The notes beneath the pieces were generated by a model, which worked only from the letters and a program-made list of their open reading frames with translations, did no database searches and was not told where the DNA came from. The translations under genes and the position numbers were made by a program. From NCBI GenBank assembly GCA_020348925.1, contig CP070758.1, positions 2,183,688 to 2,247,687 on the forward strand: DNA of 64,000 nt. Reading direction: 5' to 3'. Below, one piece after another: positions 39,651-62,788 of this stretch; the first letter of the stretch is position 1; each line of letters opens with the position of its first letter. The DNA comes from Gemmatimonadota bacterium (GTDB lineage Bacteria; JBHIER01; G020348925).

Positions 39651-39714
39651 TGGGTATGTTTAACCAAAAAACCATAGATGTGATTGCCACCACAGTAAGA
39701 GGTTCAAACGCAAC

Positions 39715-42790: not shown

Positions 42791-44002
42791 TTACAGTGCT
42801 TCCACCAGCAGCGCAATGCCCTGGCCGCCGCCGATACACATGGTCGAGATGCCGTAGCGCGCCTTTCTTCTGCGCAACTCCATAATGAGCTTGAAAGTCA
42901 AAATACAGCCTGTGGCTCCCAGCGGATGCCCCAGGGCAATAGCCCCGCCGTTGACGTTCACTTTGTTCCGGTCCAGCCCCAGTTCCCTTTCAACGGCCAC
43001 ATATTGAGGTGCAAAGGCTTCGTTGATCTCCCACAGATCGATGTCATCAATGGTCAGGCCGGCCTTCTCCAAGGCCATTCTCGAAGACGGGGCCGGACCG
43101 ATGCCCATGATCGTGGGATCGACAGCAGCTATTCCCCAGGAGACCAATCTGGCCAAAGGTGTCAGATTGTGCTCTTTTGCCTTCTCCATGGTCGTCACCA
43201 CAACCGCCGCCCCCCCATCGACAATACCGCTGGCGTTGCCCGCCGTAACGAGGCCACCTCTCCCGAAGGCCGGACGCAGCTTGGCCAACGCCTCGAGGGT
43301 TGTATCAGGTCGGCAATGGTCGTCCTCGTTTACGACGGTCACGTTGCCTTTGCGATCCGTAATCTCGACCGGGACCTTCTCCTCCTCAAACAGCCCTTTT
43401 TCAATAGCCGCGCTGCCCCTCTTCTGGGACTCTAAGGCGAACTGATCCGAATCCTCGCGGGTCACCCCGTATTTTCTCGCCAGCTTCTCGGCCGTCTGGG
43501 CCATAAACATACCGATGAGGGGATGGTTCAGGGATTGAAAGAGCACATCTTCCAACAAGACACCCGGCCCAAAACGCATGGGCGTTCCCCGAATACCGCG
43601 AACGGCATACGGCGTCTGGCTCATGGACTCCATACCACCGGCCAGCACAAAATCAGCTTCATCCAGCAAGATCATCTGAGTACCGGTGACGATCGCCTGC
43701 GCTCCTGACCCACAGATGCGATTCACAGTCAAAGCAGGCGTTTCAATTGGGATTCCCTCGATCCTCAAGCACACATCCCTGGCGCCGTAGAGTGCATCAA
43801 CGGCATCATGATTGGCATTCCCCATGACGACATGGTCGATCCATTCAGGCTTCACCTGAGACCGCTTAATCGCTGCCCTGCCTGCTATCGCACCCAGCTC
43901 GCACGCGCTGAAATCCTTCAATTTCCCGGCACCGGGGGTCCCGGCGTATTCGGCCATGGGTGTCCTGGCACCACCAACGATGACTATGTCTTTCTGGAGC
44001 AT
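42791..44002 (-). CDS. Acetyl-CoA C-acetyltransferase (thiolase); likely start MLQKDIVIVGGARTP after a GGAGGA RBS
   Basis: Thiolase N-terminus and C-terminal ...CIGGGQG... motif. Confidence 0.85.
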   Translation of the reverse strand: MLQKDIVIVGGARTPMAEYAGTPGAGKLKDFSACELGAIAGRAAIKRSQVKPEWIDHVVMGNANHDAVDALYGARDVCLRIEGIPIETPALTVNRICGSGAQAIVTGTQMILLDEADFVLAGGMESMSQTPYAVRGIRGTPMRFGPGVLLEDVLFQSLNHPLIGMFMAQTAEKLARKYGVTREDSDQFALESQKRGSAAIEKGLFEEEKVPVEITDRKGNVTVVNEDDHCRPDTTLEALAKLRPAFGRGGLVTAGNASGIVDGGAAVVVTTMEKAKEHNLTPLARLVSWGIAAVDPTIMGIGPAPSSRMALEKAGLTIDDIDLWEINEAFAPQYVAVERELGLDRNKVNVNGGAIALGHPLGATGCILTFKLIMELRRRKARYGISTMCIGGGQGIALLVEAL

Positions 44003-44376: not shown

Positions 44377-45315
44377 CTAAGCCGGGATGGCTTCTCGCAC
44401 ATACGTCAGCCAGCCGTGTCGATCCTCCTTTTCACCGGATGTAATGGCAAAGAATTCTTCTTGAAGTTGCTTCGTAATAGTTCCGACCGATCCATCTCCG
44501 ACGGGAATTTTATCGATGTACCCGATGGGTGTAATCTCGGCCGCACTGCCTGTAAAAAAGACTTCGTCGGCGATATAGAGACCTTCTCTGGGGATAAGCT
44601 GCTCGACAACCTCGTATCCCAACTCTTTGGCAAGTGTTATAATCGAATCCCTGGTGATACCCGGTAGAACAGAGGCCCCAAGGGGTGGAGTGCACAGAAC
44701 GTCGTCGTTGACGATAAATATGTTTTCACCGCTCCCCTCACTGACATACCCATACACATCCAATGCGATCCCTTCCATGTAGCCATCCTTTACCGCTTCC
44801 ATTTTTATAAGTTGTGAATTCATGTAGTTGGCCCCGCATTTGGCCAAAGCCGGAAACGTATTCGGAGCCATCCGTGCCCAGGAGGACACCCTGACCGAAA
44901 CACCTTTGTCAAGTGCCCCCTCCCCCAAATATTGTCCCCATCCCCATACGGCGATGGTTACTTCCACAGGGCAATTGAAGGGATTGACCCCGACATCACC
45001 GTATCCTCTGTAAACGACAGGCCGGACGTAACACTCCTCCATCTTATTCACACGAATGGTCTCTAAACAAGCGTCAAGAATCTCCTGTTTCGCGTAGGGT
45101 ATCTCCATCCGATAAATCTTGCACGAATCATACAACCTATCAATGTGCTCTTGGAGGCGAAAACAGGCCGAACCTTTCTTCGTCTTGTAACAACGCAATC
45201 CCTCAAAAAGACTTGTTCCATAATGGATGACGTGGGATAGAATGTGGATGTTGGCATCATCCCAATTGACAAATTTCCCGCTCATCCAGATCTTTTCGGA
45301 CTTTTCAAACGGCAT
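44377..45315 (-). CDS. ilvE: Branched-chain amino acid aminotransferase (class IV aminotransferase)
   Basis: 312 aa. ...YGTSLFEGLRCY... and ...FFTGSAAEITPI... motifs. Confidence 0.85.
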   Translation of the reverse strand: MPFEKSEKIWMSGKFVNWDDANIHILSHVIHYGTSLFEGLRCYKTKKGSACFRLQEHIDRLYDSCKIYRMEIPYAKQEILDACLETIRVNKMEECYVRPVVYRGYGDVGVNPFNCPVEVTIAVWGWGQYLGEGALDKGVSVRVSSWARMAPNTFPALAKCGANYMNSQLIKMEAVKDGYMEGIALDVYGYVSEGSGENIFIVNDDVLCTPPLGASVLPGITRDSIITLAKELGYEVVEQLIPREGLYIADEVFFTGSAAEITPIGYIDKIPVGDGSVGTITKQLQEEFFAITSGEKEDRHGWLTYVREAIPA

Positions 45316-45356: not shown

Positions 45357-46505
45357 CTATTTCAGAAGACTGGCAGCGATCACCATCCGCTGCACTTCAG
45401 AAGTGCCCTCATAAATCTCGGTAATCTTCGCATCCCTGAACAACCGCTCCACCGGATACTCTTTCATGTATCCGTATCCCCCATGGATTTGTATGGCCTT
45501 CGTTGTCGTCCTCATCGCCACTTCTGAAGCAAAAAGCTTGGCCATGGCCGCTTCCTTCGAATACCGTCCACCACTGTCCTTGGCCCGGGCCGCCTGGTGG
45601 ACCAGATGCCGGGCACCCTGAATCTCAGTCTCCATATCGGCCAGCATCCACTGAATAGCCTGAAATTCACAGATCGGCTTTCCGAACTGGGTGCGCTGTT
45701 TCGAATAGGCAATCGATTCATCAAGGGCGGCCTGGGCAATTCCCAGGGCCTGAGCAGCGATCCCAATTCTCCCTCCGTCGAGGGCATCCAGGGCGATCTT
45801 GAATCCCATTCCTTCTTCACCCAAGAGGTTCTCTTTGGGCACCTTGCAATCTTTGAAAACGAGCTCAGACGTATCACTGGCCCGAATACCGAGCTTGTTC
45901 TCCTTCTTTCCCACCTCGAAACCATCCCATTTCTTCTCAACGATGAAAGCATTGATGCCCTTGTACTTCTGTTCCTTGTCGGTCATGGCAAAAACCACCA
46001 CGGTATCCGACTTGCCCCCGTTGGTGACGAAGATCTTCGTACCATTAATAACGTAGTGATCTCCATCTCTAACGGCGGTGGTCTGCAGGTTCCCGGCATC
46101 GGAACCTGCGTCCGGCTCGGTTAAGGAAAAGGAACCCAGATGCGTTCCATTGGCCAAGGGAACGAGATATTTCTTCTTTTGCTCCTCGTTGCCGTATCTG
46201 AAAATCGGATGACACACGAGGGAGTTGTTTACCGACATGGTCACCCCACATGAAGCATCACCACGGGAAATCTCCTCCACGGCAATGACATAACTGACAG
46301 TGTCCATACCGGCACCGCCGTATTCCTCCGGGATCATCATGCCCATGAATCCCAATTCACCCATCTGTTTGACCTGTTTGGCCGGGAATTCCTCGGTTTC
46401 GTCTCGCTCTGCAGACTCCGGTTTTAACTCATTCTCAGCGAAATCTCTGGCAGTTTTTTTAATAAACTGCTGCTCCTCAGTCAGTCCAAATTCCAAAAGC
46501 CTCAC
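45357..46505 (-). CDS. Acyl-CoA dehydrogenase (short/branched-chain type)
   Basis: 382 aa. ACAD N/M/C domain motifs (...GSFSLTEPDAGSDAG..., ...YEGTSEVQRMVIA...). Confidence 0.9.
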   Translation of the reverse strand: MRLLEFGLTEEQQFIKKTARDFAENELKPESAERDETEEFPAKQVKQMGELGFMGMMIPEEYGGAGMDTVSYVIAVEEISRGDASCGVTMSVNNSLVCHPIFRYGNEEQKKKYLVPLANGTHLGSFSLTEPDAGSDAGNLQTTAVRDGDHYVINGTKIFVTNGGKSDTVVVFAMTDKEQKYKGINAFIVEKKWDGFEVGKKENKLGIRASDTSELVFKDCKVPKENLLGEEGMGFKIALDALDGGRIGIAAQALGIAQAALDESIAYSKQRTQFGKPICEFQAIQWMLADMETEIQGARHLVHQAARAKDSGGRYSKEAAMAKLFASEVAMRTTTKAIQIHGGYGYMKEYPVERLFRDAKITEIYEGTSEVQRMVIAASLLK

Positions 46506-46588: not shown

Positions 46589-47776
46589 TTAAACAATTTC
46601 AAGACTCATGGCTACGGCTCCGCCACCTCCAAGACACAGGGTGGCCAGACCTGTCTTGAGGCCGCGATCCTTCAAGGCATAAATCAACGTTGTCACCACC
46701 CGCGCCCCGCTGGCCCCGATGGGGTGGCCTAGAGCGATGGCTCCCCCGTGGACGTTGACCCGGTCCCAGTCCCAGCCGAGTCCTCTGCCGTCGGCCAGAC
46801 ACTGGGCAGCAAAGGCCTCGTTCGCCTCGATCAGATCGAAGTGGTTGATGTCCACACCCAGTTTTTCCATCAATTTCCCCACGGCCACAATAGGGGCAAA
46901 GAACACATCCTTGGGCTCCATGAAGCCGGAGGCATATCCCGTGATTTTGGCCATAGGCTGAATACCCAATGCCTCGGCTTTATCCGCTCCCATGACGACG
47001 ACGGCAGAGGCACCGTCGTTCAATCCAGGAGCATTTCCGGCCGTCACCATTCCGTCCTTTTGAAAGGCGGGCTTGAGTTTTGCCAATCCTTCGAGGGTCG
47101 TTTCCGCCCGCGGCGTCTCATCGGTGTCGATGACAAGAGGATCCCCTTTCCTCTGAGGAATCTCGACCGGCACGATTTCCTCTTTGAATTTCCCATCGCT
47201 CATCGCCTTGGCCGCCTTCATCTGGCTGTTGTAAGCGTACTCGTCAAGCTCCTCCCTCTTCAAGCCGGCCTTTTGAGCCGTATACTCCGCCAGATTTCCC
47301 ATGTGGACATTCTCGAAAGCGCACCACAAACCATCATAGATGAGGACATCGATCATCTTCTGATCGCCGAATTTCACTCCGTCCCGGATTTTCTTAACGA
47401 CGTACGGACACTGACTCATGGATTCCATACCACCACCAACGACGACGTCGGCCTCCCCAAGCTTGATCGCTTGGGCCCCGAAGACGATGGCCTTCAGGCC
47501 TGATCCACATACTTTGTTGATCGTGGTTGCAGGCACCTTCGCCGGCAGGCCACCTTTGAGTGTGGCCTGTCTGGCCGGTGACTGACCCAGACCGGCCTGA
47601 ACCACATTGCCCATGAACACCTCGTCGACCTGATCTGGCTCGATCCCGGATCTCACCACCGCCTCTTTGATGACAACACCGCCTAAATCTTGCGGCAAGA
47701 GTGACGAAAGACCGCCCAGGAACCGTCCGCTGGCTGTCCGACAACAACCGGTAATAACGACATCACGAGTCTCCAT
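46589..47776 (-). CDS. Acetyl-CoA C-acyltransferase (thiolase); likely start METRDVVITG after a GAGGAGGG RBS
   Basis: Thiolase motifs, with C-terminal ...CLGGGGAVAM. Confidence 0.85.
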   Translation of the reverse strand: METRDVVITGCCRTASGRFLGGLSSLLPQDLGGVVIKEAVVRSGIEPDQVDEVFMGNVVQAGLGQSPARQATLKGGLPAKVPATTINKVCGSGLKAIVFGAQAIKLGEADVVVGGGMESMSQCPYVVKKIRDGVKFGDQKMIDVLIYDGLWCAFENVHMGNLAEYTAQKAGLKREELDEYAYNSQMKAAKAMSDGKFKEEIVPVEIPQRKGDPLVIDTDETPRAETTLEGLAKLKPAFQKDGMVTAGNAPGLNDGASAVVVMGADKAEALGIQPMAKITGYASGFMEPKDVFFAPIVAVGKLMEKLGVDINHFDLIEANEAFAAQCLADGRGLGWDWDRVNVHGGAIALGHPIGASGARVVTTLIYALKDRGLKTGLATLCLGGGGAVAMSLEIV

Positions 47777-47813: not shown

Positions 47814-48665
47814 TTAATCATACTGAACCCTTTCCACCGTCTCGACAACCCACCTCCCTTCTCTCTCCCGCAGATACCCCATGCCAATCGCCGGAGAGTG
47901 GACGAAGACCAACAGCCACTCTTCTGCCAGGGCTTGATTGAGAATTCTTTCTTTTGCCTCTATTGTCTGCATCGGATACAGATCGTAGCTCATAATATAG
48001 GGAATTTTGATGTGTGAGGTCATGGGAACCAGATCTGCCAGAAAGAGGGCTGTTTTTCTATCAGATTCGATCTTCACGACCTGATGGCCCTCGGTGTGAC
48101 CGCCGGCGGGGATGACTCGGAGTCCATCGGTCACTTCTTCCTCTCCCTCAACGAGCCGAAGCAATCCATGTTCTTCCAAAGGAAGGAAATGCTCCCTTGA
48201 ATAATTGTTCTTCGTACGAATGTTGGGATGTAAGGCCGCCTCCCATTCAGCCCGCTGCAGAACATAGGTTGCCTTGGGGAAGGTCGGAATGAATCCCCCG
48301 CTGCCATCACCAACCGTATTCCAGCCGACGTGATCGAAATGGAGGTGGCTGCAAATAACAATATCGATGTCCTCAGGCTTCACACCGAGCATATGTAACC
48401 TATCCATGAGTGTCTTCGGCTGTACCACTCCGAAGATACCTTTTGACTTTGGCTCAAGCCTGTTCCCTATACCCGTTTCGATAAGAATGTTATTCTCTCC
48501 CGTACGAATCAATAAAGAATTCAGTCCCATAAGAATGCGATTGTTCTCATCAGGAGGATCGATTCTCTGCCACAGCATTTTCGGCACCACACCGTACATC
48601 GATCCCCCGTCCAACCGGAACGTCCCGTCGCTCAACAGATGGAGTTCGAATGTTCCAAGTTTCAT
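47814..48665 (-). CDS. MBL-fold metallo-hydrolase
   Basis: HxHxDH motif (SHLHFDHVGW). 283 aa. Confidence 0.8.
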   Translation of the reverse strand: MKLGTFELHLLSDGTFRLDGGSMYGVVPKMLWQRIDPPDENNRILMGLNSLLIRTGENNILIETGIGNRLEPKSKGIFGVVQPKTLMDRLHMLGVKPEDIDIVICSHLHFDHVGWNTVGDGSGGFIPTFPKATYVLQRAEWEAALHPNIRTKNNYSREHFLPLEEHGLLRLVEGEEEVTDGLRVIPAGGHTEGHQVVKIESDRKTALFLADLVPMTSHIKIPYIMSYDLYPMQTIEAKERILNQALAEEWLLVFVHSPAIGMGYLREREGRWVVETVERVQYD

Positions 48666-48668
48666 GAA

Positions 48669-49805
48669 TTAATCCCGTAGCAATTGTCGAGCTATTACCA
48701 ATCTCTGAATCTCCGACGTCCCTTCACCGATCTCCGTCAATTTGGCGTCGCGCATGAATCGCTGCACCGGATATTCTCTCATATAACCCCGGCCGCCGTG
48801 AATCTGGACCGCATGGATCGTCGACCGCATGGCCACCTCTCCGGCGTACAGCTTGCACATGGCCGCCTCTTTGGTGAAGCGCACCCCAGAGTCCTTCATC
48901 CGAGAGGCATGATAGACCAAATGGCGAGCCGCTTCAATCTCCGTGGCCATATCCGCAATCTTCCATTGAATGGCCTGCAAATTGGCTATCGGCTTTCCGA
49001 ACTGAATTCGCTCCTTGGCCCATTCGATACTGGCATCAAGGGCTCCCTGCGCAATGCCCAGAGCCATGGCACCAATACTGATCCTGCCACCGTCCAGGGT
49101 GATCATGAACTGTTTGAAGCCCTCGCCCTCTTTTCCCAAGATATTCTCTCTCGGAATCCGGCAGTTCTCGAATATCAGCTCACACGTGTCGGAGCCCCGA
49201 AGCCCCAGTTTATTCTCCTTTTTTCCGATTGTAAAACCGGGCGTTCCACGTTCAACGATAAAGGAGCTGATGCCTTTCGTCCCTTTGCTCTTGTCGGTCA
49301 TGGCCGTAAAAACCACCGTCTTGGCAATACTGGCATTGGTGATAAAGCACTTTGTTCCATTGATGACGTAGTCATCGCCGTCCAGAACCGCCGTCGTCTG
49401 CGTTCCGGCAGCATCGGAACCGGCGTTCGGTTCGGTCAGGCCGAAGGCCCCGATCTCCTCGCCCTGCGCCAGGGGGATAAGATATTTCTTCTTCTGCTCC
49501 TCCGTCCCAAAGGCGTAAATAGGAAACGATCCGAGAGAAATATGTGCTGCATACGTGATGCCCGTCGATCCGCACACCCGTGAGATCTCCTCCACGGCGA
49601 TGGTGTAATGCATCGTATCTTTCCCCGCCCCGCCATACGCTTTCGGAAAATTGATACCCATGATGTCCAGCCTTGCCATCTCCTTGACGGTGTCCCAGGA
49701 AAATTCTCCGGTCCTGTCGATCTCCTCTGCCTTGGGCTCAATGATCTCCTTGGCAAAGGTTCGCATTTTCTGTTGAAACGCAAACTCCTCCTGCGTCAGT
49801 TCCAT
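48669..49805 (-). CDS. Acyl-CoA dehydrogenase; likely start [11 protein letters not shown]
   Basis: ACAD motifs (...[16 protein letters not shown]..., ...[15 protein letters not shown]...). Confidence 0.9.
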
Positions 49806-49818: not shown

Positions 49819-50334
49819 TCAGTCAGCCGATCCCTCAAGAGGAGCAATCTCCACAAGAGGGACGCCCGCATCCACCAGATCACCATCGTTGTAATGTATT
49901 TTTTTCACCCGTCCATCTATGGGCGATCGCAGGGCATTTTCCATCTTCATCGACTCCACAATGATCAGGCTCTGATTTTTCTCCACGTGGTCGCCCTCAG
50001 TCACTTGAATTTTCACAACCGTCCCTGGCATGGGTGCGGCAAGGGACTGCTCCCCCGATGCAACCGAACCTCCCCTAACATATCCAGACCGAGCGGTCTC
50101 TTCAACCTCCTCCAGACAGAAATGATACCCATCGATATGGAGGTATCTTTTCTGTTCACTCGCAGCGATGGAGACCTTATATGATCGACCCTCGACCAAG
50201 AGGGACAGGCAATTTTCAGAAATAGGGCGAGCGTCAACAGGCACAGGGCCATCTCCAAAATCAATCGTGTAGTTTTCACCATCTGAGCGAACATCTATCT
50301 TGTATTGTTTTCCAGAAACTCCAAATTCGTATTC
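49819..50334 (-). CDS. Biotin carboxyl carrier protein domain protein (BCCP part of a split acyl-CoA carboxylase alpha subunit)
   Basis: C-terminal biotinyl domain with the ...[11 protein letters not shown]... (AMKM-type) biotinylation motif. Confidence 0.75.
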
Positions 50335-50347
50335 CATGAAAACTCCA

Positions 50348-51865
50348 TCAGCTCGAAGCGATCTCCCACTTGCCAACCGTGTGCCACGGAGTGACCACCG
50401 CCTCTCGAAAACGGTTCGTACTCTTTGAAGGGGAAGCCTCTTTCATTGAGGCAATGGCTGCCGCGGCCAAGGCGACGTTGAGGCTTTCCCCGTTTTGGCC
50501 CTCTCCCCAATCGGCCATATGTCTCTCGATAAAGCTGGTGTATGTCCGGCCCGCAGCAAACTCGGGATGGGCGATAACGTCCCGCAGAAACCCAACGGTC
50601 GTCCGAATGCCCAAAATGGTCAGTTCGGACAGGGCCGAAATCATCCGTTTACACGCAACATCCCTGTCCTCTCCCCAGACAATGAGCTTGGACAGAATGG
50701 GATCGTAATGGACCGGAACCGTCCAGCCTGAGTAAATGCCGCAGTCGTGCCGCACACCCGGGCCCGATGGCTCCTGCAGAAAGAGAATTTTTCCGGGAGA
50801 AGGCATGAAATTGTTCTCCGGATTCTCGGCATAAATTCGGCACTCGATGGCATGTCCCAGTTGGGTCACATCCTCCTGGCGAAGGGACAATGTATCGCCG
50901 GAGGCGACGCGGATCTGCTGATGAACGAGATCGATGCCTGTGACCAACTCCGTCACCGGATGCTCGACCTGAAGCCGGGCATTCACCTCAAGAAAGTAGA
51001 AATTTCCCTCCCGGTCGAGAAGGAACTCCACCGTGCCGGCGTTGGAATACTCCGAAGCTCTGACCACTTTGAGGGCGGTCTCTCCCATCTTTGTTCTCAG
51101 ATTATCGTCCAGGGCCGGCGATGGTGTTTCCTCGATAATCTTCTGATGGCGTCGCTGGATTGAACACTCCCGCTCGAAGAGATGAACCGCCTGACCGTGC
51201 TTATCGGCCAGGATCTGAAACTCAATATGGCGCGGTTCTTCGATATATTTTTCGATGTACACCGACGCATCCCCGAAGGCCGATTTGGCCTCTCTCATTC
51301 CCCCCTCAACGGCCTCTTGCAGTTCGTTCTCCGACCCGACCACCCGCATGCCCTTGCCCCCACCCCCGGCCGAGGCCTTGATCAATACTGGATAGCCAAT
51401 CTTTTCGGCCTCTTCAACAAAGTCATCGGTCCCGCCACCCTTGTGCATCATGCCTGGAATAATGGGCACCCCTGCAGCGATCATGGTCTCGCGGGAAGCA
51501 ACCTTATCACCCACCAGTTTCAACGCCTTTGAATCCGGGCCGATAAAGGTGATGTCCTCCTCCTCACACCGCTGGGCGAAGAGATGGTTCTCAGCCAGAA
51601 AACCGTAGCCCGGATGGATGGCGTCAGCCCCCGTGGCCTTGGCCGTATTGACGATTGTCTCAATATTGAGATAACTTTGAAGTGGGGCCGGTGGTCCGAT
51701 ACAGATCGCCTCGTCGGCAACCTGAACATGGAGTGACTCCCGATCCACCTCGGAATATACCGCCACCGTCGGGATTCCCAGCTCCCGGCATCCCCTAATT
51801 ATGCGAACCGCAATCTCCCCGCGGTTGGCTATTAAAATCTTTTTAATCACAAAATTATTCATCAA
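50348..51865 (-). CDS. accC: Biotin carboxylase subunit (acetyl/methylcrotonyl-CoA carboxylase)
   Basis: IKKILIANRGEIAVRIIR N-terminus and ATP-grasp motifs. 505 aa. Confidence 0.9.
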   Translation of the reverse strand: MMNNFVIKKILIANRGEIAVRIIRGCRELGIPTVAVYSEVDRESLHVQVADEAICIGPPAPLQSYLNIETIVNTAKATGADAIHPGYGFLAENHLFAQRCEEEDITFIGPDSKALKLVGDKVASRETMIAAGVPIIPGMMHKGGGTDDFVEEAEKIGYPVLIKASAGGGGKGMRVVGSENELQEAVEGGMREAKSAFGDASVYIEKYIEEPRHIEFQILADKHGQAVHLFERECSIQRRHQKIIEETPSPALDDNLRTKMGETALKVVRASEYSNAGTVEFLLDREGNFYFLEVNARLQVEHPVTELVTGIDLVHQQIRVASGDTLSLRQEDVTQLGHAIECRIYAENPENNFMPSPGKILFLQEPSGPGVRHDCGIYSGWTVPVHYDPILSKLIVWGEDRDVACKRMISALSELTILGIRTTVGFLRDVIAHPEFAAGRTYTSFIERHMADWGEGQNGESLNVALAAAAIASMKEASPSKSTNRFREAVVTPWHTVGKWEIASS

Positions 51866-51889
51866 AGGTCAGATGAAGGCTGAGATCGT

Positions 51890-52402
51890 TCACCCCGCAA
51901 CAGGCGGTATAGTTTCAATAATGCGGTACAGTAGAAGCTTCGATATGACCACAAGATCTTTCGCTTCGGCGAAGAAACCCTTCTTTGGATGCAATAGTTG
52001 TCTCGCCTCCTCTTCAAAAGCCTTGAAGTATGAAGCCAGGGAAAACTCCTTCTTCAGTTCCTCCAAATGGGAGATAAGTGTATCAAACTCCCCCTTATCA
52101 AGCCAAACTCCCTGGCATGTGGGGCAGATGTCAAGGGGAAGGTCCGCATACCCAGCGTAATTGATGACACTCATATTCTCATGACACTTCGGACAGGAAC
52201 GTTCGCCCTGTTCGGTCGAAAGTTTCTCTGTGTCCGCCCAGAGTGAAAAATCGAAGCCTTCGAGCTTTCGATCCTTTTCATTCTTGGCCCGCTCCAGCTC
52301 CCCCTTGTCGAACCACAATCCGTCGCACTGCTCGCAGTGGTCGAGAACAATACCTTTAAAGTCGTGACGTTTTAAATCAACCCGGCAGTTAGGACATTTC
52401 AT
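51890..52402 (-). CDS. Double zinc-ribbon protein of unknown function
   Basis: CPNC...CEQC and CPKC...CPTC pairs. Confidence 0.55.
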   Translation of the reverse strand: MKCPNCRVDLKRHDFKGIVLDHCEQCDGLWFDKGELERAKNEKDRKLEGFDFSLWADTEKLSTEQGERSCPKCHENMSVINYAGYADLPLDICPTCQGVWLDKGEFDTLISHLEELKKEFSLASYFKAFEEEARQLLHPKKGFFAEAKDLVVISKLLLYRIIETIPPVAG

Positions 52403-52418
52403 GGGACCGCTTCCACTG

Positions 52419-52847
52419 TTATTCAGCCCGGTAGATATCGGGCTGCATTTTCCCAGGACTCATCAATTCGATGACCGACGGCGTTATTTTCAGGACGACG
52501 AGATTCGGATCATCGGGTCCGGAGAAGTAGGCTTTTAATTGATCGGACCAGAACCTCTTTTTCGTCTCAGCATCATCCAACACCTCTGCCGCGGCAGCAA
52601 TATTCAGGTACGCGTGCTCCATATCGTTCGGATCGGCCCCAAGAATAACGTGGACATTGGGATCCGCCTTGATCTGGGCCACCTTGCGGGATTGAACAAA
52701 GGTGTTCACGTACAACGTCAGGTCGTCGGTCCCGTGGGTCATGACATAGCGAACCCACGGCCGATCATCCTTGATGGTGGCCAATGAGGCCAGGTGCGAA
52801 CCTTTCAAAACGTCCAGGATCTTCTGCTTCAGCTCAGTTTCTTCCAT
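52419..52847 (-). CDS. Pyridoxamine 5'-phosphate oxidase-like FMN-binding protein (general stress protein 26-like)
   Basis: 142 aa, PNPOx split-barrel-like sequence. Confidence 0.65.
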   Translation of the reverse strand: MEETELKQKILDVLKGSHLASLATIKDDRPWVRYVMTHGTDDLTLYVNTFVQSRKVAQIKADPNVHVILGADPNDMEHAYLNIAAAAEVLDDAETKKRFWSDQLKAYFSGPDDPNLVVLKITPSVIELMSPGKMQPDIYRAE

Positions 52848-52882
52848 TTCCTTCCCCCTTTTTCGTAAGTCTCCGCTCTCTG

Positions 52883-53680
52883 CTAATCAACGGACCACTT
52901 CGGTTTTCTTTTCTCAAAGAATGCGGACATCCCTTCCTGCGCCTCCGCCCCCTCCCTCAATTTGGCCAGGACGTCGGCCGTATAGGCCCTTGCCTCTTCA
53001 AAATCCAGTTGAGGAACCTGTTGCAGCAGCTGTTTGCAGACATGGAGGGCATAGGGTCCACTGGAGAGCAGTTGCTTGACTCTCTCTCCGACAGCTGCAT
53101 CGAGCTCCCCCTCGGGAACGACCTGATTCACAAGACCCGATTCCAAGGCTCTCTGGGCGGTGAGCCGCTCCCCGGTCAGAAAGAACTCCCGGCACCTGCT
53201 CTCGCCGACCCGACGGACCACGTAAGGAGAGATGCAGGCCGGGACGACACCGATCTTCACCTCGCTGAAACTGAAAACGGCGGATTCGGCGGCGATGGCC
53301 AGGTCACACACGGCTACAAAGCCTGTCCCCCCACCGATGGCAGGCCCGTTGATTCGAGCAATCGTAGGCTTCGGTGATGAATACATACTGTACATCAATT
53401 CCGCAAGTCTGAGGGTGTCCTCGAAATTTTCTTGATACGAGTATCCCTGTATCCTCTTCATCCAGTGAAGATCCGCACCAGCACAGTAACATGTCCCACG
53501 ACCCGTTAAAACAACGACTCTGACATCATCTCGCCCCGCAATATTGTCAAATACTTCCAGCAACTCTCCGATCATAACGTCATTGAACGCGTTGCGTATC
53601 TCTGGGCGGTTCAATGTCACCCTGGCAACCAGATCCTCAACAGTGTACAGGATGGTCTCGTATTCTTTTTTCTCAGCCAT
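52883..53680 (-). CDS. Enoyl-CoA hydratase; by context, likely methylglutaconyl-CoA hydratase
   Basis: Crotonase motifs (...GTCYCAGADL..., ...GPAIGGGTGF...). It lies between the MCC carboxyltransferase and the biotin carboxylase. Confidence 0.8.
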   Translation of the reverse strand: MAEKKEYETILYTVEDLVARVTLNRPEIRNAFNDVMIGELLEVFDNIAGRDDVRVVVLTGRGTCYCAGADLHWMKRIQGYSYQENFEDTLRLAELMYSMYSSPKPTIARINGPAIGGGTGFVAVCDLAIAAESAVFSFSEVKIGVVPACISPYVVRRVGESRCREFFLTGERLTAQRALESGLVNQVVPEGELDAAVGERVKQLLSSGPYALHVCKQLLQQVPQLDFEEARAYTADVLAKLREGAEAQEGMSAFFEKRKPKWSVD

Positions 53681-53712
53681 GTATTGTCCCCAGATAGTCT
53701 TTGAAACTACAG

Positions 53713-55320
53713 CTACATTCGAAAGACACCGAATCGGTGATCAGGAACTGGTGCATTCAGAGCCATGGATATGCCCAGTCCGAGGCATGTCCGCGTATCC
53801 AGGGGATCGATGATGCCGTCGTCCCACAGCCTCGCCGTGCTGTAATAGGGGCTCCCCTCCTCCTCATACTTTCTCAGCGTCGGCTCTTTGAACTTCTCCT
53901 GCTCCTTATCACTCATCGTCTTGCCTTCGGCCGCCAGCTGAGCGAGCTTAACGGTCAGAAGAACATTGGACGCCTGTTCGCCCCCCATGACGGAGATACG
54001 GGCGTTGGGCCACATCCACAGAATCCGCGGGAAATAGCCCCTCCCGCACATGGCATAATTTCCAGCTCCGTAGGAACCGCCGAAGATGACCGTGAAGCGG
54101 GGCACCTGGGCCGTGGCCACGGCGTGGACCATCTTCGCTCCGTCTTTGGCGATGCCTCCATGTTCGTACTGTTTGCCGACGATAAATCCGGTGATATTCT
54201 GCAAGAAGAGAAGGGGGATCTTTCGGACGGCACACATGGAGACAAAATGAGCCCCCTTTTGGGCGCTCTCCGAGAAGAGGACGCCGTTATTGGCCACAAT
54301 GCCCACCGGATACCCCATGATGCGGGCATAGCCGGTAACGAGGGTCGTTCCGTACCGCTCCTTGAATTCGTGAAAGCGGCTGCCGTCAACGATCCGGGCG
54401 ATAACCTCCCGACTGTCGAACGGTCTTCTCAAATCTTTGGGAACGATGCCGTATATCTCCTCCGGATCGTAGTAGGGGTCCTCCGGTTCATCCCGCTCCA
54501 AGTCGAACTTCCGGGGGATCGGGATATTCTCAACGACGTTGCGGCACAATTCGATGGCATGCTCGTCATTCAGGGCAAAATGATCGGAGACACCGGATAT
54601 TCTCGTGTGAACATCGCCCCCACCCAGCTCCTCGGGCGTCACATCGACCCCGGTGGCCGCTTTCACCAGCGGGGGTCCGCCGATGAAGATGGTGCCCTGT
54701 TCTTTGACGATGATGGTCTCATCACTCATAGCCGGCACGTAGGCCCCGCCGGCCGTACACGATCCCATGACAACCGAAATCTGCGGGATACCGAGGGCTG
54801 AAAGCCGGGCCTGGTTGTAAAAGATTCGACCAAAATGCTCCTTGTCCGGAAAGACTCCGGCCTGCAAGGGCAGAAAGACACCCCCCGAGTCCACCAGATA
54901 GATGCACGGCAGTCGGTTCTCGAGAGCCACTTCCTGGGCCCGGACATGTTTTCTGACCGTCTCGGGGAAGTAGGTCCCACCTTTCACAGTGGCATCATTG
55001 GCCACAATGAGGACCTCTTTTCCATGAACCACTCCAATGCCGGTGACAATACCGGCGCAGGGAGCCTCATTGTGGTACAAACCATATGCGCACAGGGGAC
55101 TCAACTCCAAGAACGGTGTATTCTTATCCAGTAAACGGTCAAGGCGTTCCCGAACGGTCAATTTTCCTCTGGCCTTGTGTTTCTCAACGGCCTTGGCCGG
55201 TCCACCCTTCTTCACTTCGGCCAATCGTTCTTGAAGCTCGGACACGACCCGACGCATGTGCTCCCGATTTTCCTGGAACTCAGGGCTGGCTGTGTCTATA
55301 TGAGATTCGATTCGATACAT
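53713..55320 (-). CDS. Methylcrotonyl-CoA carboxylase carboxyltransferase (beta) subunit
   Basis: 535 aa acyl-CoA carboxyltransferase. The C-terminal ...[15 protein letters not shown]... is typical of the MCCase beta chain. Confidence 0.85.
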
Positions 55321-55356
55321 GTGGATGCTTCGCTTTTCGGTGGAACTTAAAAAGGA

Positions 55357-55749
55357 TCACACCGGAACACATTTGTATCCGTAACAGAGGATGCCCGCTT
55401 CACCCACAGTCTGGATCCGACGAAATTCGACCTTCACCTTCTGGCCGATCTCCAGATGCTCCACGTCGCAGTCAACGACCTGAGCTGTCAGTCGCACGCC
55501 GTCATTCAATTCGACGATCCCGATCGCATAGGGCGCTTCATCGACAAATTGGCTCGGGGCCACGCGAATGACGGTGAACGTCTGCAACGTCCCCTCATCC
55601 TTCAGACGGACGATCTCGAATTCCCTGGCCCCGCACGCACAGACCAACCTCGGAGGGAAATAGGTCTTCCCGCAGCGGGTACATTTGCCCGCCTCCAGTC
55701 TGTACCTTTGAGGAATTTCACGCCAGTATCTCGCTGGTGTCACCATCAC
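55357..55749 (-). CDS. DUF35 Zn-ribbon/OB-fold protein (partner of SCP-x-type thiolase / HMG-CoA synthase)
   Basis: [18 protein letters not shown] zinc ribbon followed by an OB fold. It overlaps the upstream thiolase gene by 4 nt. Confidence 0.8.
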
Positions 55750-56903
55750 TGCACCTCCAATATATGCACAAGGGTGCTGCCACCACTGCCGCCCATATTC
55801 TGCGTCAATCCAACCCGGGCACCCTCAACTTGTCGTTTGTCCGCCTCTCCGCGAAGCTGTTTCACAATCTCAACAACCTGGGCCACACCTGTGGCTCCCA
55901 CAGGATGGCCCTTGGCCTTGAGGCCCCCGCTGGCATTCACCGGTATCTTTCCCCCCAGAGCCGTCAGTCCGCTCTCGGCCGCCGTCCCCCCTTTGCCCTT
56001 CTCAATGAACCCCAAAGCCTCAATGACACAAATCTCCGCTATGGTGAAACAGTCATGCACTTCGGCCAAATCGATATCCTCGGGCTTCTTACCGGCCATC
56101 TGATAGGCAGCTTCCCCTGCCTTGGCCGTAGCGTTCAAGGTCGTAACATCGTCACGGCTGTGGAGGGCTATGGTATCTGTGGCATGACCGACCCCGGTTA
56201 TTTTCACGACCGGCTTATCCGTTAGGGTCTTAGCCATATCAAGGGGACACAGGATAACGGCAGCGGCCCCGTCTGTGATGGGCGAGCAATCGAGGATCCT
56301 GAGCGGGTCCGCCACCATGACAGAGCTCAGGACACCCTCAACCGTCACCTCGAACGGATACTGAGCCAACGGATTCAAGGCTCCGTGCCGATGATTCTTG
56401 ACCGCGACATGAGCCAGTTGTTCTCGTGTCGTTCCATAGGTGTGCATATGGGCCCGGGCCATCATCGCATAGAGACCCGGAAAGGTAACTCCATGAAATC
56501 CTTCATATTCTTGATCGGCCGCCGTGGAAAGGGCGTAAGTGGCCTGATCCCCACCGACGTCGGTCATTTTTTCCACACCGGAGACGAGAACGATATCGCT
56601 GAAGCCCGCGGCCACTTCGAGAAAACCCTGCTTGACGGCCAGACCACCGGAAGCACACGCCGATTCGACTCTTGCCGCGGGAATAGGGCCCATGCCCAGG
56701 TAATCGGCCAGCTGGGAGGCCAGATGTTCCTGCCCGACAAAGAGTGCGCTGGTCATGCATCCCACATACATCGAATCGATGTGATCGACGCCGGCATCAT
56801 CGATGGCCAAGAGGGCTGTCTCCACAAAGATATCCCTGAGGGCTTTGTCCCACAGCTCCCCCCATTTCGTCATACCGATTCCAATGACTGCTACATCCCT
56901 CAT
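55746..56903 (-). CDS. Thiolase-domain protein of the SCP-x/archaeal acetoacetyl-CoA thiolase type; likely start [15 protein letters not shown]
   Basis: ...[15 protein letters not shown]..., ...ESACASG..., and C-terminal ...[16 protein letters not shown], then ATG at 56903. Confidence 0.85.
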
Positions 56904-56913
56904 TATCCTTCTC

Positions 56914-57963
56914 CTATTCAGTAATCTTGTTGATTTTGCCTCGAAATTTCGCGTAGGTCCCGTATTCAAGATAATTCTTGTTGCTGTCCAGCATCACCCT
57001 CGTCTTCGGTGCCATATCACGCACCTCTTCGATTCGGTCAGTGACGGTGAAGATGAACCCATCGCTGCCAGCCCCGGAACCATAGGAGCACATCAGAATT
57101 TTGTCTCCCGGAACGGCGATATCCAACGTGGCCGTCAAGCCCATGGGCGATGAACCGGAATAGGTGTTGCCCAGCTTCGGAACCAGCCAGCCCGGCTCAA
57201 TCTGTTCCCGCTTGAAGCCCAGCATCTTGCCGACCCTCATGGGAAACTTTCCGTTGGGCTGATGGAATATGGCGTAGGCGAAATCCTCGGGCTTCATTTG
57301 GGCCTTCTCCATGATGCCCCTGGCACATCCGGTGATGTGTTTGAAATAGGCCGGCTCACCTGTGAATCGGCTGGCATGCCGGGGATAATACTGATACTCC
57401 CGTCGCCAGAAATCGGGCGTATCGGTCATAAAGGCGTAAGTCAGATCGACGGAGGCAACAATATTCTGCTTCCCGAAGATGAAGGCCGCTGCTCCCGCCG
57501 AGGCTGCATATTCTAAGGCGTCACCCGGGGCTCCCTGGGACGTATCCGCACCGATGGCCAGACCGTAAGAGATGTGTCCTGCCTCAACCTGACTGAGAAC
57601 GACGTACATACCCTCCGAGCCGGCCTTACAGGCAAACTCAAAATCGGCCGTATGGACCTCCGGCGTCGCTCCCAGAGCTTCGGCCACTACTGTTCCGCTC
57701 GGTTTCACGGCATACGGATGGGATTCCGAACCGATATAGACAGCTCCGATCTCTTGGGGATCGATCCCCGCTCGCCGTAATGCATGTTTCGAAGCCTCAA
57801 CCGACATCGTGATCGTATCCTGATCCGGGGATGGTACGGACTTCTCTTCCAACATCAATCCTCTCTTGTAGCTCGGTGCATCTGCGCCCCACACCTTGGC
57901 AATCTCTTCCACTCGAATTCTATTTCTCGGCATGTAGGCACCATAGCCAACAATTCCAACCAC
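56914..57963 (-). CDS. Hydroxymethylglutaryl-CoA synthase (archaeal-type, about 350 aa)
   Basis: [12 protein letters not shown]..., ...[13 protein letters not shown]..., ...FHQPNGKFP... Confidence 0.85.
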
Positions 57964-62165: not shown

Positions 62166-62200
62166 GGTGTGCAGCGCACTATATTAGTGTGCAACGCACA
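62166..62200 (+). promoter_or_regulatory. Tandem imperfect palindromes GTGTGCAGCGCAC and GTGTGCAACGCAC flanking TATATTAGT. This is a candidate operator and -10 region for the PhaR-like gene.
   Basis: Read directly. It lies 16 bp upstream of the AAGGAGG RBS and ATG at 62216. Confidence 0.4.
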
Positions 62201-62215
62201 AAAGGAGGTGTATCT

Positions 62216-62788
62216 ATGACACGTATCATCAAACGGTACGTCAACAGAAGGCTCTACGATACGGAGCAGAAGAAGCAGATCACGCTTCAGGATCTGGCGG
62301 AACTGGTCAAGGACGACGTCGAGATTCAGGTGATCGACAACAAGACGGGTGAGGACATTACAGCCGATATGTTGGTACAAGTCGTCCGGCGCGAGTCAAA
62401 GGGTTGGAAAGATGCGGTCGGCTCCACCAAGGTTTTAGCCGATATGGTAAAGAAAGGAGGGGGTACGATGGCTGATGTTCTCCGAAAGGGTCTCCTGGCA
62501 AGTATCGGGGTCTTCTCCCTGACCAAAGAGCGAGCGGAGGAACTGGTCGACGAACTGGTCAAGCGGGGGGAAGTCTCAAAGGAGGAGAAAGCTAAGGTGG
62601 TCAAAGAACTCGTCGATAAGGCCGAAGCGAGATCGAAGGAATTGGCCAAAAAGATCGATGTTCAGGTCAAAAATACTATGGCCAAAATGAAAACGACAAA
62701 AGACGAGGAGATTCAATCTCTTAAAGAGAAAATCGATCACCTCACTGCTCAGGTGGAGACACTCCAAAAAAAGATGAAAACAAAATAG
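62216..62788 (+). CDS. PhaR-like polyhydroxyalkanoate-synthesis regulator fused or related to a phasin-like coiled-coil C-terminus
   Basis: N-terminal IIKRYVNRRLYDTEQKKQITLQDLAELVK...IDNKTGEDITADMLVQVV matches the PhaR DNA-binding signature. The C-terminal half is a Lys/Glu-rich coiled coil. Confidence 0.6.
   Translation: MTRIIKRYVNRRLYDTEQKKQITLQDLAELVKDDVEIQVIDNKTGEDITADMLVQVVRRESKGWKDAVGSTKVLADMVKKGGGTMADVLRKGLLASIGVFSLTKERAEELVDELVKRGEVSKEEKAKVVKELVDKAEARSKELAKKIDVQVKNTMAKMKTTKDEEIQSLKEKIDHLTAQVETLQKKMKTK

Follow-up and report, generated by a model that had tools for sequence, protein, structure and literature searches.

Leucine degradation of the liu type ends with HMG-CoA lyase, and the locus described here raises the question of what takes the place of this enzyme. 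In the window, a 64-kb stretch of a 5.04-Mb genome, genes for a methylcrotonyl-CoA carboxylase (MCC) and a hydratase follow genes for an archaeal-type HMG-CoA synthase (HMGCS), a thiolase and a DUF35 protein (hereafter the trio). Related genomes were seen as loci collected via the synthase, 49 of which had enough flank to be informative, and an independent metagenome sample was collected via the carboxyltransferase (CT).

Gene content of the cluster

Every gene from HMGCS to the biotin carboxyl carrier protein (BCCP) that a sequence-only reading had named was recovered on the minus strand where it had been placed, but the two ORFs that separate the hydratase from the biotin carboxylase (BC) had been overlooked (Table 1). 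These encode a PNPOx-like protein, a homologue of which occurred in 0 of 160 related loci, and a double zinc-ribbon protein that was not found in the related loci either; both genes are insertions specific to the lineage of the window. The same reading had put a branched-chain aminotransferase (BCAT), two acyl-CoA dehydrogenases (ACADs) and further thiolases directly past this region, and these were located at 49805-42791. Because no gap from HMGCS to BCAT exceeds 83 nt, these 14 genes probably form one transcription unit with a catabolic role.

Table 1. Features of the operon and its surroundings (positions in the window).
Feature	Position	Strand	Family or model match
HMGCS, archaeal-type, 349 aa	56914..57963	-	TIGR00748; PDB 6ESQ_I
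SCP-x/archaeal-type acetoacetyl-CoA thiolase, 385 aa	55746..56903	-	NF004720
DUF35 scaffold protein, zinc ribbon and OB fold	55357..55749	-	PF12172 and PF01796 (zf-ChsH2 and OB_ChsH2_C)
MCC beta (carboxyltransferase, CT), 535 aa	53713..55320	-	PF01039, 516 bits
Crotonase-family hydratase, LiuC position, putative 3-methylglutaconyl-CoA hydratase	52883..53680	-	PF00378
PNPOx-like split-barrel flavoprotein, 142 aa	52419..52847	-	PF01243, 66 bits
Protein with two TFIIB-type zinc ribbons, 170 aa	51890..52402	-	PF13453 (two), 93 bits
Biotin carboxylase (BC), 505 aa, MCC-alpha N-terminal part	50348..51865	-	
BT-BCCP protein, 172 aa, MCC-alpha C-terminal part	49819..50337	-	Biotin_lipoyl, 77 bits
Short-chain ACAD, candidate isovaleryl-CoA dehydrogenase	48669..49805	-	Three ACAD domains
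Metallo-beta-lactamase-fold (MBL) protein	47814..48665	-	PF00753
Classical (type II) acetyl-CoA acetyltransferase	46589..47776	-	TIGR01930, 446 bits (cut-off 241)
Second short-chain ACAD	45357..46505	-	ACAD domains
BCAT	44377..45315	-	TIGR01122, 437 bits (cut-off 246)
Third classical thiolase, BktB-like, after 371-nt gap	42791..44002	-	TIGR01930, 431 bits
PhaR/phasin-like gene	62189-62788		

The synthase, which is 100% identical to NCBI UCE20290.1, scored 543 bits against TIGR00748 (cut-off 353) and 461 bits against PDB 6ESQ_I, with ∼65% identity to the latter, and it retains the GSESHPY, EFACKAG and FHQPNG motifs. The thiolase (556 bits against NF004720, cut-off 420; 383 bits against PDB 6ESQ_A and 388 bits against 7YVY) contains the nucleophilic Cys (ACASGG), HDCF and GHPVGATG. 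Its ORF is open to 56969, and alignment with homologues placed the start at the ATG at 56903, 10 nt past the HMGCS stop. The top PDB match of the DUF35 protein was 6ESQ_E, the corresponding chain in the archaeal complex (107 bits, full length). The 4-nt overlap noted earlier between these last two genes was confirmed for a GTG start of DUF35 against the thiolase TGA, with an alternative ATG start giving a 1-nt overlap, and DUF35 is translationally coupled to the thiolase. Catalytic motifs were also retained in the related loci, in 61 of 61 thiolases and 63-64 of 64 synthases. By sequence, the trio proteins are orthologues of the complex of M. thermolithotrophicus with intact catalytic motifs, and they would presumably assemble likewise. 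Since the trio is orthologous to that complex and the motifs are kept here and in related loci, a repurposed acylase of the PhlACB/MucABC type was ruled out.

Among PDB entries, the CT gave 767 bits with human MCCB and 736 bits with MCC-beta of P. aeruginosa, compared with 464 bits for geranyl-CoA carboxylase (GCC) beta and ∼270 bits for PCC-beta. It is thus much nearer to MCC-beta than to the GCC and PCC counterparts, and it is ∼65% identical to MccB from proteobacterial liu clusters. BC, with Biotin_carb_N, CPSase_L_D2 and Biotin_carb_C domains, matched human (515 bits) and P. aeruginosa (512 bits) MCC-alpha in the PDB. BT-BCCP carries the biotinyl-Lys in VESMKME, matches ACCA_BT weakly over residues 14-87 and can be aligned with residues ∼505-664 of the alpha chains of PCC and MCC. 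The suggestion that MCC-alpha is split was thus borne out by separate ORFs for BC (∼500 aa) and BT-BCCP (∼180 aa), an arrangement that is probably archaeal-like. The order CT-hydratase-BC mirrors liuB-liuC-liuD.

The hydratase and both ACADs fell under every specific family cut-off, and their substrate specificities are putative. For the hydratase, which is LiuC/AtuE-like, the best NCBIfam models were PRK07468 (264 bits) and PRK05674 (255 bits; gamma-carboxygeranoyl-CoA hydratase type), and its identity to the hydratase lying between CT and BC in related loci is 43-62%. For the first and second ACAD, the nearest model was of the AcrC/Bcd type (530 and 549 bits, respectively). An ACAD after BCCP was also seen in loci L040, L041, L044 and L079, and an MBL protein adjoins the ACAD also in L044 and L047; the MBL protein of the window scored 228 bits against a YtnP-type model (cut-off 425). 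BCAT additionally matched NF005146 (440 bits, cut-off 279).

Conservation of the operon and distribution of the lyase

The gene string HMGCS-thiolase-DUF35-CT-hydratase-BC-BCCP is a conserved operon found in about ten phyla, many of them uncultured. Carboxylase genes lay beside the trio, in the same order, in 36 of the 49 informative genome loci, which were labelled Aminicenantes, Zixibacteria, Ignavibacteria, Acidobacteriota, Eisenbacteria, Coatesbacteria, Glassbacteria, Elusimicrobiota, Planctomycetota and Myxococcia, and the gene order of the window recurred in 15 metagenome loci. Complete genomes with the operon were the chromosome encoding UCE20290.1, CP070825.1, CP070742.1 and OY969724.1. 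The BC (ATP-grasp) subunit and BCCP were present in every cluster of trio and carboxylase. In the remaining 13 informative loci the trio stood without an adjacent carboxylase, so the association of the two is not a strict one. We found no earlier description of such an operon in the literature.

In agreement with the sequence-only reading, the 64-kb window lacks HMG-CoA lyase: a six-frame tblastn search with the Cupriavidus lyase returned nothing at E<1, and there was no HMGL-like Pfam match. Across the 2.06 Mb of window and loci combined, no trio locus contained a lyase, and the search for HMG-CoA reductase, a GHMP kinase motif and an AtoDA-type or acetoacetate CoA-transferase found none of these. 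Lyase (6 loci) and fused MCC-alpha (9 loci) were confined to the 65 trio-less loci, compared with 0 and 0 among the 56 trio loci, and in the metagenome sample all trio-bearing homologues had split BC/BCCP and no lyase. After filtering for locus length, the lyase count was 0 of 25 with the trio against 3 of 15 without it (Fisher p=0.046), so that the mutual exclusion of lyase and trio is statistically modest, at p about 0.05. Since the gene order recurs across about ten phyla and lyase and trio were never in one cluster, the possibility that the juxtaposition is incidental has become unlikely.

These counts bear on whether leucine catabolism here could simply depend on a canonical lyase and an acetoacetate-activating enzyme encoded elsewhere, with the trio linked otherwise, for instance through the thiolase alone acting on acetoacetyl-CoA, or with synthase and lyase forming an HMG-CoA cycle for the production of acetoacetate or of PHA precursors. 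The window covers 64 kb of a 5-Mb genome, and even canonical clusters often have the lyase >8 kb away from CT (none was nearby in 12 of the 15 long trio-less loci); the PhaR/phasin-like gene would also fit. We nevertheless consider these variants unlikely: they offer no reason why a catalytically intact synthase should be kept beside the carboxylase in about ten phyla, synthase plus lyase would waste a thioester, and the trio loci differ from the trio-less ones in lyase content and have no CoA-transferase nearby.

Direction of the trio complex

We tentatively propose, with confidence somewhat short of even, that this is a liu-type leucine/isovalerate operon in which the lyase is replaced by the trio complex running in reverse, from HMG-CoA to three acetyl-CoA. 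BCAT would transaminate leucine, and an enzyme encoded outside the cluster would carry out the oxidative decarboxylation to isovaleryl-CoA, which an ACAD would convert into 3-methylcrotonyl-CoA. The three-subunit carboxylase (CT, BC and BT-BCCP) would then use ATP to form 3-methylglutaconyl-CoA, and the hydratase would yield HMG-CoA. Reversed HMGCS would split HMG-CoA with CoA into acetyl-CoA and acetoacetyl-CoA, and the latter would reach the thiolase via the shared CoA site, where thiolysis would give two acetyl-CoA. The endergonic reversal of the synthase would thus be pulled by exergonic thiolysis, the mirror image of the coupling in the archaeal complex, and the net conversion of HMG-CoA and 2 CoA into 3 acetyl-CoA would neither make free acetoacetate nor require a CoA-transferase. 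If true, one extra thioester would be conserved relative to the lyase route, and substrate-level phosphorylation would be ∼+2 rather than +1 ATP per leucine skeleton with the carboxylation cost paid.

Thiolase condensation costs ∼+25 kJ/mol and the synthase step yields roughly -25 to -35 kJ/mol, which places the two steps together near equilibrium and makes them reversible in principle. To our knowledge, HMG-CoA synthase has never been shown to operate in reverse in vivo, and it is commonly termed irreversible. Reversal as a substitute for the lyase had already been offered as one option by the sequence-only reading; it is the option that the context supports best (an ATP-dependent carboxylase, packed ACADs and BCAT, and no lyase, CoA-transferase or mevalonate gene close by), and it is in this sense that we infer the direction.

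A cluster devoid of lyase is also predicted if the complex runs forward. It would then share one HMG-CoA pool with the leucine branch (MCC and hydratase), and the pool would feed mevalonate for isoprenoids via a reductase encoded elsewhere, as has been proposed for archaea and trypanosomatids. We regard this reading as the chief rival, though as rather unlikely. The trio proteins are genuine orthologues of the complex through which archaea enter the mevalonate pathway, and a route from leucine through HMG-CoA to mevalonate is accepted in archaea (PMC12979851). However, HMG-CoA reductase or GHMP kinase occurred within ±10 kb in 0 of 56 trio loci, though mevalonate genes of bacteria are normally clustered; the phyla with the operon are not among the main reported bacterial holders of these genes, and 58 of 59 bacterial phyla that have a sequenced genome were confirmed to possess the MEP pathway (PMC6107057). 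Moreover, two routes to one product would be expected under opposite regulation rather than co-transcription, and the surroundings in the window are catabolic (two ACADs, BCAT and three more thiolases).

The direction of the whole pathway could also be biosynthetic, from acetyl-CoA through HMG-CoA, 3-methylglutaconyl-CoA and 3-methylcrotonyl-CoA to isovaleryl-CoA. Decarboxylation would then fall to the biotin enzyme, and the product would serve as iso-fatty-acid starter or, via reductive carboxylation and BCAT, as a source of leucine. The synthase and hydratase genes indeed share one string with those for the ACADs and BCAT, Myxococcus has an established link from HMG-CoA synthase via LiuC to isovaleryl-CoA, and the trio was also found in three Myxococcia-labelled loci (L065, L069 and L072). 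On the other side, the BC subunit conserved in all such clusters points to ATP-driven carboxylation, not decarboxylation, reversal of a carboxylase against the cellular ATP/ADP ratio is unfavourable, and neither a decarboxylase of the AibA/B type (CoA-transferase family) nor an AibC-type reductase was found in the window. The MvaS/LiuC-type isovaleryl-CoA route raised by the sequence-only reading is accordingly disfavoured, and we regard this direction as very improbable in either variant.

Relation to known systems

The liuRABCDE clusters of Pseudomonas and other Proteobacteria share with the window an MccB-type CT, a hydratase between CT and BC and a nearby ACAD. In the window, however, LiuE (HMG-CoA lyase) is lacking, a LiuR-type regulator was not observed, separate BC and BT-BCCP proteins take the place of one MCC-alpha, and the trio stands at the operon head. 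The myxobacterial isovaleryl-CoA pathway (MvaS, LiuC, AibA/B, AibC) likewise links HMG-CoA synthase functionally to 3-methylglutaconyl-CoA hydratase, but it runs biosynthetically, and its bacterial-type MvaS, biotin-independent decarboxylase AibA/B and reductase AibC have no counterpart here, where an ATP-dependent carboxylase is conserved instead. As a mechanistic analogy only, citrate synthase is another "irreversible" thioester-hydrolysing Claisen-type synthase driven back by mass action and product removal; its reversal was reportedly established by experiment in the reversed oxidative TCA cycle of Desulfurella and Thermosulfidibacter (2018). It belongs to another enzyme family and pathway, and reversal is experimental there and a hypothesis here.

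The Friedel-Crafts acyltransferases PhlACB and MucABC have the same three-protein architecture in bacteria, and PDB entries 5M3K, 9SKH and 9VBO were matched, though with 85-206 bits against 461 bits for the archaeal synthase. They are bacterial derivatives of the same trio that no longer make HMG-CoA and that lack both the typical catalytic cysteine and the HDxF motif of the thiolase (PMC12960953), whereas the window proteins keep all motifs. In Calditenuis and haloarchaea, MCC-dependent leucine catabolism also leads to HMG-CoA and on to mevalonate with no lyase step (PMC12979851); these archaea encode the reductase and need mevalonate for membrane lipids. The phyla of the bacteria considered here are not main reported holders of mevalonate genes (PMC6107057). 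A close relative is the archaeal complex of M. thermolithotrophicus (2018), with which the window shares three orthologous proteins matched over their full length (461, 383 and 107 bits), the catalytic residues and motifs (Glu/Cys/His in the synthase, Cys/HDCF/His in the thiolase), and adjacent, translationally coupled genes. The trio of the window, known from its genes, differs in being bacterial and in lying inside a methylcrotonyl-CoA carboxylase operon away from mevalonate genes, and the direction that we propose for it is the opposite one.

The operon in the window

The gene series that a sequence-only reading had placed on one strand is present on the minus strand, from 57963 down to 49819, and opens with an archaeal-type HMG-CoA synthase (HMGCS), an SCP-x-type thiolase and a DUF35 protein, together called the trio. 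All genes named in that reading were recovered; its list lacked two small genes, for a PNPOx-like flavoprotein and a protein with two zinc ribbons. Homologues of these two were absent from all 160 related loci, and the insertion at 51890-52847 is therefore lineage-specific.

Features of the window, with the operon listed in gene order
Feature	Position	Strand	Basis or remark
HMGCS	57963-56914	minus	TIGR00748 543 bits (cut-off 353); first gene of operon
SCP-x/archaeal-type thiolase	56903-55746	minus	NF004720 556 bits (cut-off 420); 6ESQ_A 383 bits
DUF35 protein, 129/130 aa	55749-55357	minus	best solved relative 6ESQ_E, 107 bits, full length
Predicted methylcrotonyl-CoA carboxylase beta (CT)	55320-53713	minus	MCC-beta-type PDB matches
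Crotonase in LiuC position, LiuC/AtuE-like	53680-52883	minus	below all family cut-offs
PNPOx-like flavoprotein	52847-52419	minus	between hydratase and BC
Protein with two TFIIB-type zinc ribbons	52402-51890	minus	between hydratase and BC
Biotin carboxylase (BC)	51865-50348	minus	BC domains
BT-BCCP, 172 aa	50337-49819	minus	aligns to carboxylase alpha-chain residues ~505-664; last gene
MBL-fold protein	47814-48665	minus	YtnP-lactonase-like, 228 bits, below cut-off of 425; 3 nt past ACAD
Thi4-family thiazole synthase	41809-42585	minus	edge of acyl-CoA cluster
Oah/BamA (6-oxocyclohex-1-ene-1-carbonyl-CoA hydrolase), 382 aa	39715-40863	minus	crotonase family; TIGR03200 566 bits (cut-off 464); 9 kb downstream of operon
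Oah/BamA with SDR, thiolase and another hydratase	36534-40863	minus	this hydratase has a weak dienoyl-CoA hydratase match
PhaR-like regulator (PHB_acc_N) fused to phasin-like region	62189-62788	plus	4 kb upstream of operon
Cohesin-domain protein, 199 aa	62877-63476	minus
Subtilase, 1476 aa	17525-21955	minus	dockerin type I domain and T9SS-type C-terminal domain
TonB-dependent receptor in two ORFs	6150-9332	minus	CarboxypepD_reg and Plug 7413-9332, barrel 6150-7091, 320-nt gap
Low-G+C segment	~12000-16000		G+C 41-43% versus ~52% elsewhere; short ORF fragments with LNT_N and exosortase EpsH matches

Chains I (synthase), A (thiolase) and E (DUF35) of 6ESQ, the PDB structure of the Methanothermococcus thermolithotrophicus complex, were the best or near-best PDB matches of the three adjacent trio genes. 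The HMGCS protein, 100% identical to NCBI UCE20290.1, aligned over its full length with 6ESQ_I (461 bits, ~65% identity; PDB search) and scored 542 bits with NF003274 (cut-off 244). Its GSESHPY, EFACKAG and FHQPNG motifs, which we take to hold the catalytic Glu, Cys and His of the synthase, are identical to the aligned residues of 6ESQ_I, and the catalytic motifs were retained in 63-64 of 64 homologues. The thiolase starts 10 nt past the HMGCS stop and carries the nucleophilic Cys, HDCF and GHPVGATG motifs, while its own stop is overlapped by the start of the DUF35 gene (inter-gene distance -1/-4 nt). Since these motifs are kept in essentially all homologues, thiolase and synthase are probably working Claisen enzymes. 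Two other ideas about the thiolase were dropped. HDCF as opposed to HDAF is not a bacterial signature, the M. thermolithotrophicus enzyme likewise having HDCF, and an Ltp2/ChsH2-type retro-aldolase role of thiolase and DUF35 on HMG-CoA was rejected on the retained nucleophilic Cys and the ~57% identity to archaeal acetoacetyl-CoA thiolase.

In the PDB search, CT scored 767 bits with human and 736 bits with P. aeruginosa MCC-beta, against 464 bits with geranyl-CoA carboxylase beta and ~270 bits with propionyl-CoA carboxylase beta; by these scores it is an MCC/GCC-type beta subunit, nearer to MCC than to GCC or PCC. CT, BC and BT-BCCP (the separate C-terminal part of MCC-alpha) contain all domains of a predicted 3-methylcrotonyl-CoA carboxylase. 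BC, BT and BCCP functions are spread over two proteins, not one, and the MKM biotinylation motif of BT-BCCP lies at VESMKME. The earlier claim that MCC-alpha is encoded by separate BC and BCCP genes was borne out, as 33 loci have a separate ORF of ~500 aa and 23 have one of ~180 aa; on the same grounds a frameshift artefact was rejected as the origin of the split. The crotonase in the LiuC position reached 255 bits with the LiuC/AtuE-type model PRK05674 (cut-off 426), 130 bits with AtuE (4ZU2) and 115 bits with M. xanthus LiuC (5JBW).

Downstream of BT-BCCP, an acyl-CoA dehydrogenase (ACAD), the MBL-fold protein, a classical thiolase, a second ACAD and BCAT follow with gaps of at most 83 nt, and a third classical thiolase lies beyond BCAT after a gap of 371 nt. 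Both ACADs are nearest to Bcd/AcrC-type models with scores below the cut-offs, and isovaleryl-CoA dehydrogenase is a candidate role. The MBL-fold protein also adjoins ACAD in two related loci (L044 and L047). Promoter and terminator scans over 42-61.5 kb of the window performed no better than on shuffled sequence.

The T9SS PorV protein, sorting domains and TonB-dependent receptors with CarboxypepD_reg domains found in the window make its parts outside the operon fit an FCB-group-like bacterium, as far as gene content goes. One TonB-dependent receptor is split, which could reflect pseudogenization or faulty assembly, and the low-G+C segment may be foreign or degraded. The dockerin of the subtilase and the cohesin-domain protein form a cohesin-dockerin pair outside Firmicutes. 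The PhaR-like gene near the operon may be relevant, because DUF35 proteins are also linked to PHA synthesis. The presence of Oah/BamA hints at an anaerobic lifestyle, and with its neighbours it probably represents anaerobic benzoyl-CoA lower-pathway genes in this Gemmatimonadota-labelled MAG.

Recurrence of the gene order across phyla

A genome scan with HMGCS as the query, covering one genome per GTDB species, returned 80 loci with 68-81% identity, which were read over +/-10 kb. Their record labels included Aminicenantes, Zixibacteria, Ignavibacteria, Acidobacteriota/Holophagales, Eisenbacteria, Coatesbacteria, Glassbacteria, Elusimicrobiota, Planctomycetota, Myxococcia, Calditrichota, Chlorobiota and others; these labels are the depositors', and some are doubtful (e.g. 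'Eubacteriales'). When the window proteins were mapped onto the loci, the order HMGCS-thiolase-DUF35-CT-hydratase-BC-BCCP was recurrent, and an MCC-type carboxylase and/or hydratase plus BC was found in 36 of the 49 loci in which 6 kb or more of sequence follows the synthase. The juxtaposition of trio and carboxylase is thus a conserved operon. Synteny was counted on tblastn maps, because a greedy longest-ORF caller placed shadow ORFs on the antisense strand where loci are GC-rich (clusters c9, c17, c21 and c22).

Several variations on this order were seen. ACAD follows BCCP in several loci, L026 and L064 have the carboxylase block on the upstream side of the trio, and CT, BC and BCCP-like genes are on the opposite strand in the Myxococcia-labelled L065. 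Three loci labelled Planctomycetota and Acidobacteriota (L067, L074 and L078) have HMGCS-thiolase-DUF35-hydratase-BC followed by a different CT (33-36% identical) and a different BCCP-like protein, a variant with which L065 is also grouped, so that the carboxylase partners of the trio come from more than one lineage.

Additional genes accompany the operon in subsets of loci. An AtuA-family protein (PF07287, 504 bits, plus the AtuA ferredoxin-like domain) adjoins the trio or precedes CT in five of them (L056:9692-11518, L061:~9996-11792, L062:~18781-20568, L070:~3881-5588 and L076:~8492-9841). To our knowledge no reaction has been assigned to AtuA in acyclic terpene catabolism, and the family could be another candidate handler of an HMG-CoA-type intermediate. 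A B12-dependent acyl-CoA mutase (MM_CoA_mutase large and B12-binding small subunit) is a repeated neighbour of the trio/carboxylase operon (L013:17229-18896, L015:6720-8789, L032:~1797-3434, L038:2-334, L040:~19475-21034 and L047:374-9110), with isobutyryl-, isovaleryl-/pivalyl- or 2-hydroxyisobutyryl-CoA as possible substrates. A homologue of the window's Thi4-family protein (42% identity) lies between synthase and thiolase in L015 (~11039-12458), and an ORF family from this neighbourhood is also present in L038.

Trio, lyase and the fate of HMG-CoA

The sequence-only reading had seen no HMG-CoA lyase, and this holds for the 64-kb window: six-frame tblastn with the Cupriavidus liu-cluster lyase found none (E<1), nor was there an HMGL-like Pfam domain among the window ORFs scanned. 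An independent sample came from a metagenome scan with the CT protein, which gave 80 further loci that fell into two classes on mapping. In the first (CT ~70-81% identity), the trio precedes CT in the 15 loci having upstream DNA, BC and BCCP genes are separate, and a lyase is found in none; L097, with a class 1 CT and just 1.1 kb of upstream DNA, showed no trio. The second class (CT 65-68% identity) is the canonical liu cluster of IVD, classical thiolase, CT, hydratase and fused MCC-alpha, with a lyase right behind the alpha subunit in six loci and the trio in none.

After pooling, neither lyase (tblastn, E<1) nor fused MCC-alpha was found in any of the 56 trio loci, and they occurred in six and nine, respectively, of the 65 trio-less loci. 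When only loci with at least 3 kb upstream and at least 8 kb downstream of CT were kept, a lyase was present in 0 of 25 trio and 3 of 15 trio-less loci (Fisher p = 0.046). Had the trio displaced the lyase as a non-orthologous replacement, this distribution would be expected; the statistics are modest because the lyase is often distant from CT even in canonical clusters. The lyase calls rest on tblastn, since a signature regex recovered just one of the six loci that carry a lyase. That the pathway is an ordinary leucine pathway, with the lyase encoded elsewhere and the trio linked for some other reason, seems improbable to us, as it leaves the conservation of the synthase itself unaccounted for.

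Because the ATP-grasp BC and BCCP are conserved, the middle of the pathway appears to run in the carboxylating direction. 3-Methylcrotonyl-CoA would be carboxylated and then converted by the hydratase to HMG-CoA, so the four downstream genes would together lead to HMG-CoA. The conserved ATP-dependent carboxylase also speaks against an Aib-like biosynthetic direction, as does the failure to find AibA/B-type genes: the window ORFs scanned with Pfam held no CoA_trans-family protein (AibA/AibB type), and the AibA/AibB decarboxylase and AibC reductase that mark the myxobacterial Aib pathway do not lie beside the synthase. We consider such a direction very improbable.

By predicted function, the three upstream genes encode the sole HMG-CoA-acting enzymes of the operon. 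The simplest logic is that genes for consecutive steps are transcribed together, and for this reason we suggest that the complex consumes HMG-CoA. The synthase would work backwards, converting HMG-CoA and CoA to acetyl-CoA and acetoacetyl-CoA, and the latter would at once be thiolysed by the thiolase, the favourable thiolysis pulling the unfavourable cleavage. Overall, HMG-CoA and 2 CoA would yield three acetyl-CoA, free acetoacetate would not arise and a CoA-transferase would not be needed; no AtoDA-type acetoacetate CoA-transferase was found in the window and 162 loci (2.06 Mb). The thiolase step is estimated at ~+25 kJ/mol and the synthase step at ~-25 to -35 kJ/mol. On these general-knowledge estimates the sum lies within ~10 kJ/mol of zero, so the acetyl-CoA/CoA ratio would set the direction. 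Compared with the lyase route, one more thioester would be conserved, which would matter to energy-limited anaerobes. In the archaeal complex, a shared CoA site couples the unfavourable thiolase condensation to the favourable synthase step (PMC12960953).

Absence of the lyase is likewise predicted if the synthase runs forward and, together with the leucine branch, fills an HMG-CoA pool for mevalonate, a scheme proposed for archaea (PMC12979851). This explanation needs a reductase, which was never found nearby: neither HMG-CoA reductase (PROSITE-type motifs and a P. mevalonii query) nor a GHMP-kinase motif was detected in the window and 162 loci (2.06 Mb), and mevalonate genes are normally clustered in bacteria (Hoshino and Gaucher, PMC6107057). 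It would also mean the co-transcription of two alternative routes to one product, and we regard it as unlikely, if far from negligible. Searches of the trio contigs for MEP genes (E. coli IspH, Dxr, Dxs and IspG queries) found none, which is uninformative given that such genes could be captured by chance only.

That the trio consumes HMG-CoA by running in reverse, in place of the lyase, is therefore an account we put forward tentatively, at a little under an even chance. Its wider form, in which the trio was recruited as a reversible HMG-CoA cleavage system replacing the lyase in at least 10 bacterial phyla, mostly uncultured ones of sediment and subsurface, we hold slightly more cautiously still. 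Substrate specificities, complex formation and direction are what we infer here.

Comparison with known systems

The archaeal complex, MCC and the logic of the liu cluster were already known; the trio-MCC operon, the exclusivity of trio and lyase and the idea of reversal are apparently new. In the full-text literature, we found no description of a trio-MCC operon fusion, trio/lyase exclusivity or a reversed HMG-CoA synthase. Reportedly, Vogeli noted in 2018 that the thiolase/HMGCS/DUF35 complex occurs 'in some bacterial genomes'. In current models, isovalerate is degraded anaerobically by 'carboxylation + lyase + beta-oxidation' (PMC7382037), and the lyase is likewise assumed elsewhere (PMC5109826). 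The PhlACB/MucABC acylases descend from the trio but no longer make HMG-CoA and lack the typical catalytic Cys and HDxF (PMC12960953), whereas the window trio retains its motifs.

Should the synthase supply mevalonate, leucine-to-isoprenoid channelling would be extended to many bacterial phyla, which would be noteworthy too. If the reversal is true, it would explain archaeal-type HMGCS in many bacteria of phyla not known for the mevalonate pathway, and HMG-CoA synthase alone would be poor evidence of that pathway in metagenome-assembled genomes. The net substrate-level ATP from leucine/isovalerate oxidation would be roughly doubled, and the annotation and budgeting of this degradation in anoxic sediments and digesters would change. 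An intermediate-channelling complex would be usable in both directions, and a synthase deemed irreversible would work backwards in vivo. The precedent for running such an enzyme backwards is citrate synthase, as it operates in the reversed oxidative TCA cycle, and after it HMG-CoA synthase would be the second thioester-hydrolysing Claisen synthase that microbes run in this way.
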